A DNA stretch of 32,000 nt from Mycolicibacterium smegmatis (lineage in GTDB: Bacteria; Actinomycetota; Actinomycetes; Mycobacteriales; Mycobacteriaceae), in NCBI RefSeq assembly GCF_001457595.1, contig NZ_LN831039.1, forward strand, positions 5,850,001-5,882,000. Direction: 5' to 3'. This document shows, piece after piece, positions 2,813 through 30,812 of this stretch; the first letter of the stretch is position 1, and each line of letters begins with the position of its first letter. The notes under the pieces are model-generated. The model searched no databases, was not told where the DNA came from, and worked only from the letters and a program-made list of their open reading frames with translations. The position numbers and the translations under genes are program-made.

Positions 2813-3964
2813 CTACTCATCGCCGCGTTCGGCGTCGGCCCCAGAGTTGTCCGACGGGCTGTCGCCGGGCGGGTCGGACTTGGCACCGGCGTGAGCCGCG
2901 GACTCGGGCGTTGACGCCTGGGTGCGCACGTCAGGGCGCTCATCGTCTCGGGAATCCCGGAGTTCAGCCTCGACCACTCGGGCATGTCTGCCTTTGGCAG
3001 GCCCACCGACAGCGATGCGGCCGGGGCTGGCGACGCGCAGGTGCCGTTTGCGCTCGGGCTCGGGCTCGGGCTCGACCGATGCTGCCACCGGCTCAGGTGC
3101 CGGCTCATGCGTGAGTGCAGGCGTGCGCGGCGGATCGTTACGCACATAGCCGGCGTCGACGACGGGCTTGAGCGCTGCCTCGAGGTGCTTGACGATCTTC
3201 TCCGGCACCCCGAGGTCACGCGCCGGCTGCAGCAGCGGCAGCCGTTCGGTGCGCACCAGGTACGACGTGGTGACTCCACCGAGTGTGTTCGTGGTGACCG
3301 TCACGTCACGGTCGGGCACCGCGTCGAGATCCACGGAGGCGTATCCCGGTTGCGCGTGCACATACACGATGCCCACCAACGCATTTGCGACAGCGACGAG
3401 GTTGTGGACGCGGTCGGGGAAATCGGCGAAGCCGTCGTACTCGCGTGTGATGTAGATCGTGTTCCACGGCGTCTCAGGCGTTTTGACCACGGTCACGCCG
3501 AACCCGGGCAGCCGGAAGCCCTCGGGAAAGTGCCGCAGCAGCCCGCCCTGCGGGTTGGACGGGTCTCCTACACCGATGAACACCAGCTCACCGGACGCAG
3601 GCCGGTCGGACTCGGGCAGCGCCATCAGCCGCCGCTTCACCTCCGCGAGCACCAGACCGCCCTGTGAGATCCCGACGGTCGTCTTGCCTTCCGGTGTGGA
3701 CACGATCGCAGCGTGCAAGCTGCCTGCGCCGTGGGCCACCGACCAGTCCATGAACACCGGCGACGAGGGGTAGACGATGTTCACCTCCGGGGCGCCGTGC
3801 GTGTACGGCAGGCGCCACGACCCCTGATCGCCCACCAGCGCCGAGCCGGTCCCACCGACCGTCAGAACGGTGTCCGCGACGACGGCCGGCGCGACGGCAA
3901 TCGCCCCGGCGGCGATCACCGACCCGACCGCGATCAGCTTTCCAACCGCCGGCCCAACAGTCAT
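2813..3964 (-). CDS. PE-PPE C-terminal-domain (serine hydrolase-like) protein with N-terminal signal/TM segment and disordered charged tail
   Basis: 383-aa ORF. The N-terminus is hydrophobic (GKLIAVGSVIAAGAIAVAPAVVA). A nucleophile-elbow-like GISQGG is present. REYDGFADFP and the overall layout resemble mycobacterial PE-PPE (PF08237-type) domains. Family assignment is from memory of the fold signature. Confidence 0.7.
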   Translation of the reverse strand: MTVGPAVGKLIAVGSVIAAGAIAVAPAVVADTVLTVGGTGSALVGDQGSWRLPYTHGAPEVNIVYPSSPVFMDWSVAHGAGSLHAAIVSTPEGKTTVGISQGGLVLAEVKRRLMALPESDRPASGELVFIGVGDPSNPQGGLLRHFPEGFRLPGFGVTVVKTPETPWNTIYITREYDGFADFPDRVHNLVAVANALVGIVYVHAQPGYASVDLDAVPDRDVTVTTNTLGGVTTSYLVRTERLPLLQPARDLGVPEKIVKHLEAALKPVVDAGYVRNDPPRTPALTHEPAPEPVAASVEPEPEPERKRHLRVASPGRIAVGGPAKGRHARVVEAELRDSRDDERPDVRTQASTPESAAHAGAKSDPPGDSPSDNSGADAERGDE

Positions 3965-12730: not shown

Positions 12731-13735
12731 ATGTCGACCGACGATTACACCGACCTCCAGCTCCTGCATGAACTCGAGCCTGTCGTCGAGACCCTCATCG
12801 ACCGCCACATGCGGATGTGCAAGGACTGGAACCCCCACGACTACATCCCGTGGTCCGACGGCAAGAACTATTACGCACTCGGCGGCCAGGACTGGGATCC
12901 GGAGCAGTCGAAACTGTCCGAGGTCGCACGGACCGCCATGGTGCAGAACCTGCTCACCGAGGACAACCTGCCCTCCTACCACCGCGAGATCGCGATGAAC
13001 ATGGGCATGGACGGCGCCTGGGGCCAGTGGGTCAACCGCTGGACCGCCGAGGAGAACCGCCACGGCATCGCGCTGCGCGACTACCTGGTCGTCACGCGTG
13101 CGTGCGATCCGGTTGAGCTCGAAGAGCTGCGCGTCGAGCAGGTCACCCGCGGCTTCTCGCCCGGCCAGAACCAGCAGGGCGACCTGTTTGCCGAGAGCCT
13201 GTTCGACTCGGTCATGTACGTGTCGTTCCAGGAGCTCGCGACCCGCGTGTCGCACCGCAACACCGGTAAGGCCTGCAACGATCCGGTCGCCGACCAGCTG
13301 CTGCAGCGCGTCTCGGCCGACGAGAACCTGCACATGATCTTCTACCGCGATGTGTCGGCAGCCGGCCTCGACATCGCGCCGAACCAGGCCATGGCGTCGC
13401 TGCACCGCGTGCTCGCGAACTTCAAGATGCCCGGCTACACGGTGCCCGACTTCCGCCGCAAGGCCGTCGTCATCGCCGTCGGCGGCGTGTACGACCCGCG
13501 CATCCACCTCGACGACGTCGTGATGCCGGTGCTCCGCAAGTGGCGGATCTTCGAGCGCGAGGACTTCACCGGTGAGGGCGCGCGCCTGCGTGACGACCTC
13601 GGCCGGCTCGTCGAAGAGCTCGAGGACGCCTGCGACAAGTTCGAGGTCGCCAAGGAGCGCCGCCTCGAGCGCGAGCGCAAGATGGCCGAGAAGCGGGAAA
13701 TGAAGAACCTGCTCGTCTCGTCTTCTTCTTCGTGA
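12731..13735 (+). CDS. desA1: acyl-ACP (stearoyl) desaturase DesA1
   Basis: The di-iron motifs TAEENRHG and ADENLHM are present. Long stretches match my memory of M. tuberculosis DesA1 (DLQLLHELEPVVE..., NPHDYIPWSDGKNYYALGGQDWDP, NLPSYHREIAMNMGMDGAWGQWVNRWTAEENRHGIALRDYLVVTR). Confidence 0.9.
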   Translation: MSTDDYTDLQLLHELEPVVETLIDRHMRMCKDWNPHDYIPWSDGKNYYALGGQDWDPEQSKLSEVARTAMVQNLLTEDNLPSYHREIAMNMGMDGAWGQWVNRWTAEENRHGIALRDYLVVTRACDPVELEELRVEQVTRGFSPGQNQQGDLFAESLFDSVMYVSFQELATRVSHRNTGKACNDPVADQLLQRVSADENLHMIFYRDVSAAGLDIAPNQAMASLHRVLANFKMPGYTVPDFRRKAVVIAVGGVYDPRIHLDDVVMPVLRKWRIFEREDFTGEGARLRDDLGRLVEELEDACDKFEVAKERRLERERKMAEKREMKNLLVSSSSS

Positions 13736-23916: not shown

Positions 23917-25589
<1,673 letters not shown>

Positions 25590-25751
25590 GTCCTCCCGGC
25601 TCGTCAGGAATCTCTGCGGGAGAACACAGACGCCGGTGTCGGGTGATCTTCCGGATTCATGACTGACATGTAGCCGTTACCGGCCTTTGGTGTTACGAGG
25701 ATAACGCCTCACCTGCTCGTCAGCCGCGCCGAGCGAATCTTTGCCGGTCTC

Positions 25752-26567
25752 GTGGGCAACAATGTCCCGGTGCGCAGACTGGTGGTCGGGTTCGTCGCGG
25801 CGGTGGCCGCGCTCGTCGTCGGGGCGGTCGGCACCGATTTCGGAGCAGCCATCTACGCCGAGTACCGGCTGGCCCGTACGGTCCGCAGCGCCGCGTCGCT
25901 CAACTGGGATCCGTGGGTCGCGATCCTCGGGTTCCCGTTCATCCCGCAGGCCCGCGACCACAGATACAACGAGATCGAGATCCGGGCCAACGGCGTCGAC
26001 CATCCCGTCGCCGAAAAGGTGTCGCTGGAGGCGACACTGCACGACGTCGACATCACCGAGGCCTCGTGGCTGATCCGCGAGGACGCACCGCTCCCGGTCG
26101 CCGAGGCCGAGAGCCGCATCATCATCGATTCCACGCATGTCGGCCGCTACATGGGCATCGACGACCTGCTGGTCGAGGCGCCCTCACGCGACACCAACGA
26201 CGCCACCGGCGGCACCACCGAATCCGGCATCTCCGGTAATACGGGTCTGGTTTTCACCGGCACACCCAAGGCGTCGGGCCTGGACAAGAGGGTCAGCGTC
26301 GCCGTCGACCTTTCGCTCGAGGGACCCGACCAGAGCACGCTGGTGCTGACGGCGACCGGCATCCTCACGGGCCCCAACACCGCCGACGAGCAGGTGCCCG
26401 ACGACAAACTCGCATCGGTGCTCGACGAATTCAGCAACACCATCCCCGACCTGAGACTGCCGTTCGGCATCGCACCGACGAGCCAGGGCGCCCGCGGATC
26501 CGACATCATCATCGAAGGGATCGGCGAGGGAGTAACCATCGACCTGGCGGGGTTCAGGAAGACATGA
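25752..26567 (+). CDS. lmeA: DUF2993 / LmeA-like envelope lipid-binding protein
   Basis: An N-terminal TM/signal segment (LVVGFVAAVAALVVGAV) precedes a DUF2993-like body. It occupies the synteny position of Rv0817c, whose M. smegmatis ortholog I recall being named LmeA. The start could instead be GTG 25770. Confidence 0.65.
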   Translation: MGNNVPVRRLVVGFVAAVAALVVGAVGTDFGAAIYAEYRLARTVRSAASLNWDPWVAILGFPFIPQARDHRYNEIEIRANGVDHPVAEKVSLEATLHDVDITEASWLIREDAPLPVAEAESRIIIDSTHVGRYMGIDDLLVEAPSRDTNDATGGTTESGISGNTGLVFTGTPKASGLDKRVSVAVDLSLEGPDQSTLVLTATGILTGPNTADEQVPDDKLASVLDEFSNTIPDLRLPFGIAPTSQGARGSDIIIEGIGEGVTIDLAGFRKT

Positions 26568-27028
26568 GCTCATCGATGGCGGCAGCCGTCGCGGTGCTGA
26601 TCGCGGCGCTCGTGCTGGCCTATGTGATCGGGCGCGTGCTGACCCGCCGGTCCGGCCGCGTTCGCCAGACGGGCCCGGGTTCTGCCGTCGGTGCCGAGAC
26701 CGACGCGGTTGCCCAGGCCGAGGCGGAACGCAACCTCACCGATCTGGGGCTGTCGCGCACCGGCCCGACGATCCTGCACTTCAGCGCCGAGTGGTGCGGA
26801 CCGTGCGCAGGCGTGCGCCGTGTGGTCGACCAGGTGTGCGCCGAGTTGCCCGCCATAGCGCACGTCGAGATCGACATGGACGCGAATCCCCAAGCCGCCA
26901 GGCGCCTTTCGGTGCTGTCGTTGCCGACGACGTTCATCTTCGATGCGCGCGGCCACCAGCGGTACCGCACCAGCGGCGTCCCCAGGGCCGCTGACCTGCG
27001 TACCGCGGTGGAGCCGCTGTTGGCCTGA
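26564..27028 (+). CDS. thiX: membrane-anchored thioredoxin-like protein
   Basis: An N-terminal TM helix precedes a thioredoxin fold with the WCGPC active site. The ATGA overlap with the upstream stop is at 26564-26567. Confidence 0.85.
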   Translation: MSSSMAAAVAVLIAALVLAYVIGRVLTRRSGRVRQTGPGSAVGAETDAVAQAEAERNLTDLGLSRTGPTILHFSAEWCGPCAGVRRVVDQVCAELPAIAHVEIDMDANPQAARRLSVLSLPTTFIFDARGHQRYRTSGVPRAADLRTAVEPLLA

Positions 27029-27057
27029 TCCGAGGGTCATTGGGTAAGCTGTCGCTC

Positions 27058-27150
27058 GTGTCAACCCGCCTTGAGCTCTCGCTCACCAAGCGCCGCGCAG
27101 TGGATCTGTGCCGCGTTGCGGGTTGTTGCTGTTGTTGTTGTTGCTGTTGA
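27058..27150 (+). CDS. poly-cysteine leader peptide sORF (30 codons; alternative 16-codon form from GTG 27100)
   Basis: The translation is MSTRLELSLTKRRAVDLCRVAGCCCCCCCC followed by a stop. Codons 27124-27147 are TGT TGC TGT TGT TGT TGT TGC TGT, then TGA. TAAGCT (a TANNNT hexamer) lies at 27045-27050, 7 nt before GTG 27058, with no SD, which suggests a leaderless transcript. Confidence 0.6.
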   Translation: MSTRLELSLTKRRAVDLCRVAGCCCCCCCC

Positions 27151-27233
27151 GCGCAGCCGCGCGCTTTGACGCGCCCGCTCGGAATTTTCTGTTCCGGCCT
27201 GCACCCAACCAGATCCAACGACAACAACAGGAG
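27121..27233 (+). promoter_or_regulatory. candidate attenuator RNA: the Cys-codon tract pairs with the SD-proximal sequence of the DUF4395 gene; a hairpin plus U-rich tract follows the sORF stop
   Basis: 27129-27143 (CUGUUGUUGUUGUUG) pairs with 27216-27230 (CAACGACAACAACAG) over 15 contiguous pairs, including one G-U. AGGAG lies at 27229-27233 and the ATG at 27242. A separate hairpin spans 27149-27180 (GAGCG...CGCUC with an inner GCGCG/CGCGC stem) and is followed by GGAAUUUUCUGUU. Confidence 0.45.
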
Positions 27234-27241
27234 TTTCTTTC

Positions 27242-27721
27242 ATGTCATCTTCGATCACCGATACGGCGCGGCCCCGCCTCGACCAGGTGGACGTGCGCGG
27301 TCCCCGCTTCGCGGCCTGGGTCACCACGGCGGTGCTGATCGTCGCGCTGCTGGTCTCCGGTGTCAGCTCGGCCGCGGCAGCGGTGGTGCTCGCCGCCCAG
27401 GCGCTGGTGTTCGCCATCGGCGCGCTCGGCGGTCCCCGTAGGCAGCCCTACGGCCGGTTGTTCGCGACCCTGGTCGCGCCCCGGCTGGGCCCGGTCACCG
27501 AACGTGAACCGGTTCCGCCGCTGAAGTTCGCTCAGCTCGTCGGTTTCGTGTTCGCGGCCGTCGGTGCCGTCGGCTTCGCGTTCGGCATCAGTGCAATCGG
27601 CCTCGCCGCGACGGCGTTCGCATTGGTGGCGGCGTTTCTCAACGCGGCCTTCGACATCTGTCTCGGATGCCAGATCTACCCGCTCGTGGCGCGTCTGCGT
27701 CGCACATCTGAATACGCCTGA
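27242..27721 (+). CDS. DUF4395 family membrane protein
   Basis: Four hydrophobic segments are present, and the C-terminal CLGC motif (AFDICLGCQIY) is typical of DUF4395. It is the first gene of the cysA2-sseC2 cluster. Confidence 0.8.
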   Translation: MSSSITDTARPRLDQVDVRGPRFAAWVTTAVLIVALLVSGVSSAAAAVVLAAQALVFAIGALGGPRRQPYGRLFATLVAPRLGPVTEREPVPPLKFAQLVGFVFAAVGAVGFAFGISAIGLAATAFALVAAFLNAAFDICLGCQIYPLVARLRRTSEYA

Positions 27722-27757
27722 AGCCTCAAAACCCAAGCAATCGAAAGGATCTCCTAC

Positions 27758-28591
27758 ATGGCACGCTCCGACGTCCTGGTCAGCACCGACTGGGCCGAGA
27801 GCAATCTCAAAGCGCCGAAGACCGTTTTCGTGGAGGTCGACGAAGACACCTCCGCCTACGACACGGGTCACATCGAAGGCGCTGTGAAGCTCGACTGGAA
27901 GACCGATCTGCAGGATCCGATCCGTCGCGACTTCGTCGACGCCCAGCAGTTCTCCAAGCTGCTGTCCGAGCGCGGCATCGCCAACGACGACACCGTGATC
28001 CTCTACGGCGGCAACAACAACTGGTTCGCGGCCTACGCCTACTGGTACTTCAAGCTCTACGGGCACCAGGACGTGAAGCTGCTCGACGGTGGCCGCAAGA
28101 AGTGGGAGCTCGACGCCCGCCCGCTGTCCGCCGAGAAGGTCGAGCGGCCGCAGACCAGCTACACCGCCAAGGAGCCCGACAACTCCATCCGCGCCTTCCG
28201 CGACGAGGTCATCGCCGCGATCGGGACCAAGAACCTGGTCGACGTGCGCTCGCCTGACGAGTTCTCGGGCAAGATTCTCGCGCCCGCGCATCTCCCGCAG
28301 GAGCAGAGCCAGCGCCCGGGACACATCCCCGGTGCGATCAACGTCCCGTGGAGCAAGGCCGCGAACGAGGACGGCACCTTCAAGTCCGACGAGGAGCTGG
28401 CGAAGCTGTACGCCGAGGCCGGCCTCGACGGCGAGAAGGAGACCATCGCCTACTGCCGCATCGGTGAGCGTTCGTCGCACACCTGGTTCGTGCTGCAGGA
28501 GCTCCTCGGACACAAGAACGTCAAGAACTACGACGGCAGTTGGACGGAATACGGCTCCCTGGTGGGGGCCCCGATCGAGTTGGGAAGTTGA
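27758..28591 (+). CDS. cysA2: thiosulfate sulfurtransferase (tandem rhodanese)
   Basis: 277 aa with two rhodanese domains. The active-site loop is YCRIGERSSH. The sequence strongly resembles my memory of mycobacterial CysA2/CysA3. Confidence 0.9.
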   Translation: MARSDVLVSTDWAESNLKAPKTVFVEVDEDTSAYDTGHIEGAVKLDWKTDLQDPIRRDFVDAQQFSKLLSERGIANDDTVILYGGNNNWFAAYAYWYFKLYGHQDVKLLDGGRKKWELDARPLSAEKVERPQTSYTAKEPDNSIRAFRDEVIAAIGTKNLVDVRSPDEFSGKILAPAHLPQEQSQRPGHIPGAINVPWSKAANEDGTFKSDEELAKLYAEAGLDGEKETIAYCRIGERSSHTWFVLQELLGHKNVKNYDGSWTEYGSLVGAPIELGS

Positions 28592-28592
28592 T

Positions 28593-28895
28593 ATGTGCTC
28601 TGCACCCAAGCAAGGGCTGACGTTGCCGGCCGGCGTTGACCTGGAGAAGGAAACCGTGATCACCGGTCGTGTGGTCGACGGCTCCGGCCAGGCGGTCGGC
28701 GGCGCGTTCGTCCGCCTGCTGGACGGCAGCGACGAGTTCACCGCCGAGGTGGTGGCATCGGCGACCGGTGATTTCCGGTTCTTCGCCGCGCCCGGCACCT
28801 GGACCGTGCGCGCCCTGTCGTCCGCGGGCAACGGCAACGTGACCGTCGCGCCGACCGGTGCGGGGATCCACGAAGTCGACGTGAAGGTCGCCTGA
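28593..28895 (+). CDS. sseC2: DUF1416 protein SseC-like
   Basis: 100 aa beginning MCSAPKQGLTLPAGVDLEKETVITGRVVDG, with a carboxypeptidase-regulatory-like beta fold. The start lies 1 nt after the cysA2 stop. Confidence 0.85.
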   Translation: MCSAPKQGLTLPAGVDLEKETVITGRVVDGSGQAVGGAFVRLLDGSDEFTAEVVASATGDFRFFAAPGTWTVRALSSAGNGNVTVAPTGAGIHEVDVKVA

Positions 28896-28929
28896 GTCGA
28901 GGTCGCCTGAGTCAAGGTCGCCTGAGGAC
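28885..28929. repeat. 15-bp tandem repeat, three copies, each carrying an in-frame TGA
   Basis: AGGTCGCCTGAGTC occurs at 28885 and 28900, and AGGTCGCCTGAG at 28915. Copy 1 contains the sseC2 stop codon (28893-28895). Confidence 0.85.
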
Positions 28930-28937
28930 CCGGCGTC

Positions 28938-28986
28938 AACAGCGATGCCCGCAGCGTCTCATCGAGGCGCTGCGGGCATCGCTGTT
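28938..28986 (+). terminator. strong stem-loop terminator after the cysA2-sseC2 operon
   Basis: AACAGCGATGCCCGCAGCG (28938-28956) and CGCTGCGGGCATCGCTGTT (28968-28986) form a perfect 19-bp stem with an 11-nt loop. There is no clear U tract. Confidence 0.7.
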
Positions 28987-29062: not shown

Positions 29063-29161
29063 GTGGTGCTCTTCTTCGAGATCCTGCTTGTCGCGGCCGT
29101 GCTGGTCATCACGTGGTTCGCGGTGTACGCGCTGTACCGTCTGGTCACCGACGAGTCGTGA
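29063..29161 (+). CDS. candidate 32-aa single-pass membrane peptide, probably leaderless, coupled to the next gene
   Basis: The translation is (V/M)[31 protein letters not shown]. 30 of 32 codons end in G or C. TACACT (a TANNNT hexamer) at 29050-29055 lies 7 nt before GTG 29063. The stop TGA 29159-29161 overlaps GTG 29158 of the next gene. Confidence 0.45.
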
Positions 29162-29814
29162 CGTCCGCCGGGGACACTCCTGAGCGCGGCTCGGGCGACC
29201 GCGCGGTGGCCGAGGCTGCCGAACGTGCCAAAGCGACCGGCGCGCGCAACATCCCGGTCTTCGACGACCTTCCGCTGCCCGCCGACACCGCCAATCTGCG
29301 TGACGGCGTGAGCCTGAGCGATTCGCTGCTCGCGTTGCTGCCGCTGGTCGGTGTGTGGCGCGGCGAGGGCGAGGGCCGTGACGCCGACGGCGACTACCGC
29401 TTCGGCCAGCAGATCGTGGTCTCCCACGACGGCGGCGACTACCTGAACTGGGAAGCCCGTTCGTGGCGCCTCGACGAGTCCGGCGAGTACCACTCCCCCG
29501 CGCTGCGTGAGACGGGCTACTGGCGGTTCGTCAGTGATCCCGCGGATCCGCACGAGACCCAGGCGATCGAGCTGCTGCTCGCACATTCGTCGGGCTACAT
29601 CGAACTGTTCTACGGCAGGCCGCTCAACCAGTCCTCGTGGGAACTGGTCACCGATGCGCTGGCCCGCAGCAAGTCCGGGACGCTGGTCGGCGGTGCCAAA
29701 CGGCTGTACGGCATCGTCGAAGGCGGCGATCTCGGTTATGTCGAGGAACGAGTGGACGCCGACGGCGGGCTGGTCCCGCATCTGTCGGCCCGATTGTCGA
29801 GGTACGTCGGCTAG
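29158..29814 (+). CDS. nitrobindin / FABP-like beta-barrel protein (Rv0813c-like)
   Basis: [13 protein letters not shown]...[24 protein letters not shown]...[15 protein letters not shown] matches the THAP4/nitrobindin-like family. Between 29113 and 29158 this frame has only about half G/C at third positions, whereas the sORF frame has 15 of 16. That favours the GTG 29158 start. Confidence 0.75.
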
Positions 29815-30573: not shown

Positions 30574-30642
30574 CCGCCCCCAGATATGGGGCGGCCCCCG
30601 AGCCGTTGTTCCTGGTTGGACTGACCAAGGGGCTCGGGGGCC
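30574..30642. terminator. two adjacent GC-rich hairpins between convergent genes
   Basis: CCGCCCC(cagatat)GGGGCGG spans 30574-30594. GGCCCCCGAGCC 30593-30604 pairs with GGCTCGGGGGCC 30631-30642 in a perfect 12-bp stem with a 26-nt partly self-pairing loop. Confidence 0.5.
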
Positions 30643-30812
30643 GGGTGGCTGCGGGGAATTCGCCAGCGCGCGCGGGCTATTCTCCCGGCGCTGCTAGCGG
30701 GCAGCCACCTCACATGTCCATAAGTCACTCAATTTGTCGGACCACCTCCTTCCCTGTGTAAAGGCGAAGGTACCCGCGTGAGCTGCGCCCTTCAAGCTAT
30801 TTTCTCCAATGC

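Follow-up and report, generated by a model that had tools for sequence, protein, structure and literature searches.

The window analyzed here is a 32,000-nucleotide (nt) stretch of the Mycolicibacterium smegmatis chromosome (NCBI RefSeq assembly GCF_001457595.1, contig NZ_LN831039.1, positions 5,850,001 to 5,882,000 of the forward strand), and all coordinates below count from its first letter. On the plus strand, thiX (26564-27028, stop at 27028; Pfam Thioredoxin), encoding a thioredoxin-like protein, is separated by a 213-nt gap (27029-27241) from three genes: Ms5788 (MSMEG_5788; 27242-27721, ATG at 27242), encoding a 159-residue DUF4395 membrane protein (Pfam PF14340, E = 1.8e-43), cysA2 (Ms5789; 27758-28591), encoding a two-domain thiosulfate sulfurtransferase of the rhodanese type (two stretches matching Pfam Rhodanese), and sseC2 (Ms5790; 28593-28895), encoding a DUF1416 protein (Pfam PF07210, E = 9.8e-43). 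MSMEG_5788-5789-5790 have been given as one operon (Martini et al. 2019), in which Ms5788 is the first regulated gene, cysA2 is regulated through polarity and sseC2 is the last gene. GlnR and LmeA genes are located upstream of the group formed by thiX and the operon. The gap between thiX and Ms5788 contains a small open reading frame (sORF) ending in a run of Cys codons, which we identify, at a probability of roughly 95%, as Ms5788A, the polycysteine leaderless sORF that acts as a cysteine-responsive translational attenuator of the Ms5788 (DUF4395)-cysA2-sseC2 operon.

The polycysteine sORF and published Ms5788A

The sORF occupies 27058-27150 on the plus strand and consists of a GTG start, 30 codons in all and a TGA stop at 27148-27150; it encodes the peptide VSTRLELSLTKRRAVDLCRVAGCCCCCCCC. 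Eight consecutive Cys codons, six TGT and two TGC, form the polycysteine sensor tract (27124-27147, plus strand), which together with the stop codon reads TGT TGC TGT TGT TGT TGT TGC TGT TGA (27124-27150) when checked by script against the window sequence. The -10 promoter hexamer TAAGCT, a TANNNT element on the same strand (27045-27050), lies 7 nt (GTCGCTC) before GTG 27058. In other frames the tract appears as poly-Leu (+3 frame) or, antisense, as poly-Gln. A preliminary description of the window, made from its letters alone, had listed the sORF, its eight Cys codons with six TGT, the spacing of TAAGCT, the size of the gap and the poly-Leu and poly-Gln frames, and a script confirmed all of these.

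Ms5788A has been described in M. smegmatis as a leaderless sORF upstream of Ms5788-cysA2 that has nine Cys codons, of which eight follow one another at the C-terminus (Canestrari et al. 2020, Mol Microbiol 114:93; bioRxiv 10.1101/834739). The window peptide is identical to the entry in Table S1 of that study with a transcription start site (TSS) at 5,858,964 (plus strand) upstream of MSMEG_5788. Further, the published 90-nt sORF and 97-nt 3' untranslated region match 27058-27147 and 27148-27244, respectively. The product reported for the frameshift mutant, VAVVVVAVERSRAL*, is exactly what the neighbouring frame of the window (ORF 27071-27169) encodes, and the offset between the two sets of coordinates, 5,831,906, also places another leaderless sORF of that study (5857566, minus strand) at 25660. 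The DUF4395 protein matches its M. smegmatis counterpart with 100% identity, and Ms5788 likewise has a published length of 159 residues. The gene order of the window recurs in genomes that encode exactly this protein, and the 217-nt leader is identical in six such assemblies, one of the six loci differing from the window at 1 of 6480 positions. Compared with strain mc2 155, the strain studied here has indels elsewhere only, for example a 26-nt repeat-copy difference after sseC2, and no differences in the leader.

Profile matching leads to the same family. The peptide matches NCBIfam NF042933.1 (leader_Ms5788A, an equivalog model named 'Ms5788A family Cys-rich leader peptide') with 51.8 bits (cut-off 45, E = 4.6e-14), and the position of the leader, directly upstream of DUF4395-cysA2-sseC2 and downstream of thiX by Pfam assignment and gene order, fits that family. 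thiX itself has been reported to be transcriptionally independent of the leader (Canestrari et al. 2020, Fig S1 legend). The features that define a leaderless sORF are all present, namely a TANNNT hexamer just upstream, a GTG that is not preceded by a Shine-Dalgarno (SD) sequence and a published TSS coordinate, 5,858,964, that carries the identical peptide. The preliminary description had stated that polycysteine leaderless attenuators were probably a known class, with one at a cysA2-type locus; this was right. The element is already known in full, in the same organism, at the same locus and with the same mechanism, and comes with mutational proof and a curated annotation model.

Conservation and RNA pairing of the leader

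A DUF4395 profile scan of species-representative genomes yielded 80 loci from fast- and slow-growing mycobacteria, giving 81 leaders once M. smegmatis was included. At each of the 80 loci the ORF just upstream comprises 28-32 codons and encodes V-S-x-R-L-E-x-x-L-T-K-R-R-A-V-D-L-C-R-V-A-G followed by a Cys-rich tail; in 78 loci three to ten Cys codons of this tail are consecutive, and in the other two the run is interrupted. Across all 81 leaders the GTG start is invariant and the Cys-rich C-terminus is in frame with it, so the in-frame conservation that the preliminary description had proposed to examine by aligning orthologous leaders was borne out. In the alignment, T27045, A27046 and T27050 of the -10 element and the preceding G27043 and G27044 are likewise invariant, and length changes within the tract are multiples of three. 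The invariant -10 positions and start codon, together with the published TSS and the identical peptide, uphold the earlier assignment of the sORF as leaderless. The GGA core of the SD is invariant as well, and the final G of the SD is almost so. Ms5788A had previously been found conserved in many of 41 species (Canestrari et al. 2020, Table S3).

The composition of the tract is also far from what the window would lead one to expect. TGT accounts for 18% of the Cys codons (15 TGT, 68 TGC) in those ORFs of the window with high G+C at third codon positions, giving a probability of about 7e-4 for six or more TGT among eight. By chance, one window should hold about 4e-8 runs of eight TGY triplets, and the tract is the sole run of four or more TGY triplets in the window. 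Tandem Repeats Finder does report a period-3 array at 27122-27149, as a functionless chance (GTT)n microsatellite would give, but the chance expectation, the retention of frame, start codon and complementary arm in 81 species and the published experiments on the sORF already refute this reading, to which we attach a negligible probability.

Two other starts for the sense frame were considered and rejected. The preliminary description had offered GTG 27100 as a start for a 16-codon version; this position is GTC, GTT or GTA in 75 of the 81 species and GTG in six, and it falls within the transcript, whose mapped start at 27058 is upstream of it. TTG 27040, the start given by the ORF lister, is upstream of the TSS and overlaps the -10 region. 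Public gene calls over the leader (L001-L006, locus positions 2817-3017, corresponding to 27058-27258 of the window) disagree with each other, giving the 30-residue sORF, a 16-residue version from GTG 27100, an antisense ORF of 60-65 residues or, in one case, no gene at all.

We consider it very improbable that the antisense gene is the real one and the sense sORF incidental. A 97-residue antisense ORF (26934-27227, minus strand), annotated as MSMEG_5787 and containing the poly-Gln run, is indeed present, its 60-65-residue counterpart is carried by some of the public gene calls and the antisense frame is open in most species. However, open antisense frames are expected at about 68% G+C and are hence uninformative, and the ORF overlaps the ends of thiX and DUF4395. 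Antisense transcription or translation was not found by Canestrari et al. (2020), who called Ms5787 a misannotation, and all mutational data concern the sense frame.

The Cys tract of the sense frame has a pairing partner at the SD of Ms5788. Positions 27129-27143 (CUGUUGUUGUUGUUG) can form 15 contiguous base pairs with 27216-27230 (CAACGACAACAACAG), including one G.U pair (U27139.G27220). The preliminary description had named this helix correctly and had it abut the SD; in fact, the SD (AGGAG, 27229-27233) is overlapped, the core taking in A27229 and G27230. In the minimum free energy (MFE) fold the helix extends, with bulges, across a 5' arm at 27126-27149 and a 3' arm at 27206-27233, both on the plus strand, the latter including the whole SD. 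The 203-nt leader has an MFE of -83.9 kcal/mol, as opposed to -64.5 +/- 4.1 kcal/mol for dinucleotide shuffles (z = -4.68; none of 200 shuffles as good), and this fold leaves the transcript's first four nucleotides free of pairing. Constraining the tract to be covered by a ribosome footprint costs about 24-28 kcal/mol of predicted structure and raises the predicted probability of 27216-27233 being unpaired from 0.07 to about 0.5. Rfam covariance models returned no match to the leader at gathering level, and a search of 26500-27800 with the models of Rfam 15 at E up to 10 gave three chance-level matches, none of them in the leader.

The pairing recurs across the mycobacteria. With a leader counted as pairing if its MFE fold joined the Cys tract to 8 or more of the 14 nt that end at GGAG, 71 of 81 leaders paired. 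When the M. smegmatis structure is projected onto the alignment, 80.7% of pairs are retained, compared with 30-51% for slid partners, and the SD-adjacent helix is 98.3% paired across species. Cognate duplexes between tract and SD region average -17.2 kcal/mol, as compared with -9.9 kcal/mol when the sequence upstream of the SD is shuffled.

It should be noted that several results limit how far the attenuator interpretation can be carried. The same cognate duplexes barely outperform non-cognate ones (-17.2 and -16.7 kcal/mol, respectively; 16 of 5000 permutations were as good), and true compensatory covariation, the second outcome sought from the ortholog alignment, is scarce. Most changes are one-sided (U-A to U-G, C-G to U-G) because one arm is fixed by the Cys codons. 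RNAalifold, run on the gappy 81-sequence MAFFT alignment, missed the long anti-SD helix because repeats and indels shift the two arms out of register; per-sequence MFE folds and pair counts on the projected M. smegmatis structure were used instead. Ten of the 81 leaders, mostly slow-grower-like, have no pairing between tract and SD in their MFE folds, and in the constrained folds AGGAG itself gains only modestly in accessibility, from 0.26 to 0.38. Finally, the functional steps come from one group's paper, with the supporting M. tuberculosis data provided by others. Nothing in this list contradicts the attenuator model. What the alignments argue for is conservation of the pairing; strong covariation is not claimed.

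The roughly ten leaders of the 81 that do not pair (L022, L033, L035, L040, L045, L048-L050, L063, L067, L073, L086) have a different SD context (…GCAACAGGCAAATAGGAG…, GTG start). These slow-grower-like leaders may use another register or partner.

Regulatory mechanism and the conserved 5' half of the sORF

According to the attenuator model, the leader works as follows. Transcription starts at the G of GTG 27058, directed by the TAAGCT -10 element, and 70S ribosomes initiate directly on the 5' GUG and translate the 30 codons. If charged tRNA-Cys is plentiful, ribosomes pass the eight Cys codons and terminate, allowing the U/G-rich tract (27126-27149) to pair with the ACAACA-rich peri-SD region (27206-27233). 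This pairing masks the SD of Ms5788 and leaves Ms5788 untranslated, while cysA2 and sseC2 expression falls via polarity. If charged tRNA-Cys is scarce, ribosomes stall on the tract, which can then no longer pair, leaving the SD free and the operon expressed. The preliminary description had deduced such stall-dependent sequestration of the SD, which is exactly the published mechanism, supported by mutants in Ms5788A.

The published experiments were carried out on this very sequence (Canestrari et al. 2020). A reporter with a constitutive promoter and starting at the native GUG is repressed by cysteine. Changing the GUG to the non-start codon ACC lowers expression and abolishes attenuation, whereas a nonsense mutation reduces both expression and the cysteine response but keeps a residual response. 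Frameshifting the tract to poly-Leu eliminates the cysteine response, and UGY-to-UCY changes or silent swaps of the Cys codons lead to de-repression. Mutations in the peri-SD partner also de-repress, and combining them with complementary changes brings attenuation back (Fig 5); the pairing geometry singled out earlier as deserving a direct test had thus already been examined by disruptive and compensatory mutations. A cysA2 fusion is still cysteine-responsive, showing polarity, and the amounts of CysA2 and SseC2 protein shift as predicted in chromosomal mutants, both out-of-frame and deletion.

Leader peptides with a run of regulatory codons are also the hallmark of transcription attenuation of the trp/his type, in which the position of the ribosome on the Cys codons would select between an antiterminator and an intrinsic terminator after the stop codon. 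Small hairpins at 27159-27174 and 27177-27198 with a U-rich stretch could be seen in this light, and the preliminary description had noted a second hairpin plus U-rich tract beginning at the stop codon. This structure does not resemble a terminator: a terminator scan found no terminator-like site in 27029-27241, the segment 27148-27205 is no more structured than its shuffles (z = -0.87) and the U-rich stretch is located within a small hairpin, not after one. In addition, a reporter with an inserted independent SD gave high, cysteine-insensitive expression (Canestrari et al. 2020), meaning that transcription reads through; control is therefore exerted at translation initiation and not at termination. 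We give transcription attenuation very little chance.

With regard to translational attenuation by SD masking, the in silico anatomy, the identity with the published sequence, the pairing and the conservation over 81 species agree with the published mechanism and confirm it. The functional evidence, that is, the TSS, translation, the cysteine response, the need for start codon, frame, codons and pairing, the absence of termination and the chromosomal phenotype, is the work of others on the same sequence.

Upstream of the tract, the sORF folds into a 5' structured domain (27062-27125, plus strand; MFE pairs) made up of a closing helix (27062-27069 with 27118-27125) and a conserved hairpin (27089-27117), the latter having a folding energy of -15.4 kcal/mol (z = -2.77) when folded alone. 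Codons 9-21 (LTKRRAVDLCRVA, 27082-27120) show a third-position identity of 0.917 across the 81 species, compared with 0.687 in conserved DUF4395 codons of the same genomes. The helix of the hairpin (helix 4) is 90.5% paired over the 81 sequences, stem substitutions keep the pairs (C-G to U-G, G.U to A-U) and those third positions of codons 9-21 that do vary sit in the hairpin loop. This suggests that codons 9-21 are under constraint at the nucleotide (RNA) level beyond the published SD-masking model.

A role beyond that model for codons 9-21 and the hairpin, either as an RNA folding guide or insulator or as a nascent-peptide element tuning the stall, is a tentative and rather unlikely proposal. 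As a folding guide, the 5' domain would force the Cys tract to choose only between the ribosome and the peri-SD arm. Similarly doubtful is the broader idea of a separate function, additional to the action in cis, for the Cys-rich peptide or for the conserved 5' half of the sORF, be it nascent-peptide stalling, a metal- or redox-active small protein or a folding-guide hairpin. Such a function would fit the near invariance of codons 9-21 over 81 species, synonymous sites included, the consistently paired hairpin and the existence of a separate NCBIfam domain model (NF042934, 'putative leader peptide') covering peptide residues 8-25, and it was left open as one possibility by Canestrari et al. 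(2020). However, the published cis mechanism fully accounts for the cysteine response without it, conservation at synonymous sites favours RNA over peptide, and Ms4527A has no NF042934 match. A phmmer search with the 30-residue peptide among 1.84 billion representatives returned 13 hits, all 13 belonging to the same Cys-tailed family, and so revealed no broader family of leaders that combines the LTKRRAVDL motif with other sensor residues.

Other elements of the window and related systems

Downstream of sseC2, a 23-bp inverted repeat (28938-28986, plus strand) is 96% complementary with a 3-nt loop and has a folding energy of -53.9 kcal/mol (z = -9.93). It has no U tail and probably forms the hairpin that closes the operon, where it would serve as terminator or stabiliser. 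The sseC2 stop codon is spanned by a 15-nt tandem repeat, AAGGTCGCCTGAGTC, present in 2.9 copies at 28884-28926, each copy of which repeats the last codons and the stop. The copy number of this repeat differs among M. smegmatis genomes, with three copies in the window and in L006, a variant in L004 and a sequence 26 nt shorter in L001.

Additional leaderless sORFs are found in the window. An 18-codon sORF at 25604-25660 (minus strand), corresponding to 5857566 (minus strand) in Table S1 of Canestrari et al. (2020), is located upstream of the glnR ORF, about 15 nt from its start (TTG 25589; glnR at 24801-25589, minus strand), and could be a leader for the nitrogen regulator GlnR. A 32-codon hydrophobic sORF at 29063-29161 (plus strand) overlaps the start of a THAP4/nitrobindin-like gene (29113-29814) and corresponds to the published leaderless TSS 5860943 (plus strand), with a 26-nt shift in this strain. 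MPTSHSPFLSRPAELALVAGYLT, a leaderless sORF published at mc2 155 position 5839545, is located at about 7681 (plus strand), 42 nt past the offset predicted from the 25-27 kb region; there must therefore be at least one indel relative to mc2 155 between 7.7 and 25.6 kb. Rfam matches at gathering level identify the actinobacterial small RNA (sRNA) Ms_IGR-5 at 30586-30759 (minus strand, 195.5 bits) and, at 13052-13119 (minus strand, 70.8 bits), ASdes, a family of sRNAs described in M. tuberculosis. A tRNA cluster at 2229-2782 comprises tRNA-Phe, tRNA-Asp and tRNA-Glu on the minus strand and tRNA-Lys on the plus strand.

Ms5788A represents amino acid sensing without a regulatory protein: a leaderless mini-gene reads the charging of tRNA-Cys and uses SD masking to switch a sulfur-transfer operon at the level of translation. 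Several loci of this kind, Ms5788A among them, make up a 'ribulon'. This significance is already established in the literature, and the family is built into NCBI annotation models. For the present analysis, the locus has value as a positive control: an experimentally validated regulatory element, and the way it works, were recovered from nothing but the raw sequence.

When compared with published Ms5788A (Canestrari et al. 2020; NF042933), the element agrees in peptide, TSS, leader length, downstream genes, predicted duplex and frameshift product, and is the type member itself. The Cys ribulon sORFs Rv0815A, Ms4527A/Rv2391A, Ms4533A, Rv2334A, Ms0113A and Ms5280A are likewise leaderless, carry clustered Cys codons and lie upstream of sulfur or cysteine genes. 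Operons of Cys ribulon sORFs respond to cysteine limitation (Canestrari et al. 2020), and later work showed that ribosomes stall on these sORFs, including Rv0815A, the M. tuberculosis orthologue of Ms5788A, which is now annotated, when VapC4 cleaves tRNA-Cys. With the exception of the orthologue Rv0815A, these sORFs constitute separate families with their own NCBIfam models (NF042936, NF042937) and shorter Cys runs.

Outside the ribulon, the ermCL/ermC and cat leaders share the principle that a stalled leader ribosome remodels the mRNA and frees a downstream SD, and the analogy to ermC/cat translational attenuation was drawn by the authors of Ms5788A themselves. They differ in that their ribosomes stall in response to an antibiotic combined with a specific nascent peptide, not to a shortage of charged tRNA, and in that their leader ORFs are SD-led, not leaderless. 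The trpL and hisL leaders also sense tRNA charging, by means of a leader peptide in which codons for the amino acid concerned stand in a run. Their output is an intrinsic terminator or antiterminator, whereas the Ms5788A leader has no terminator and exerts its control on translation initiation.

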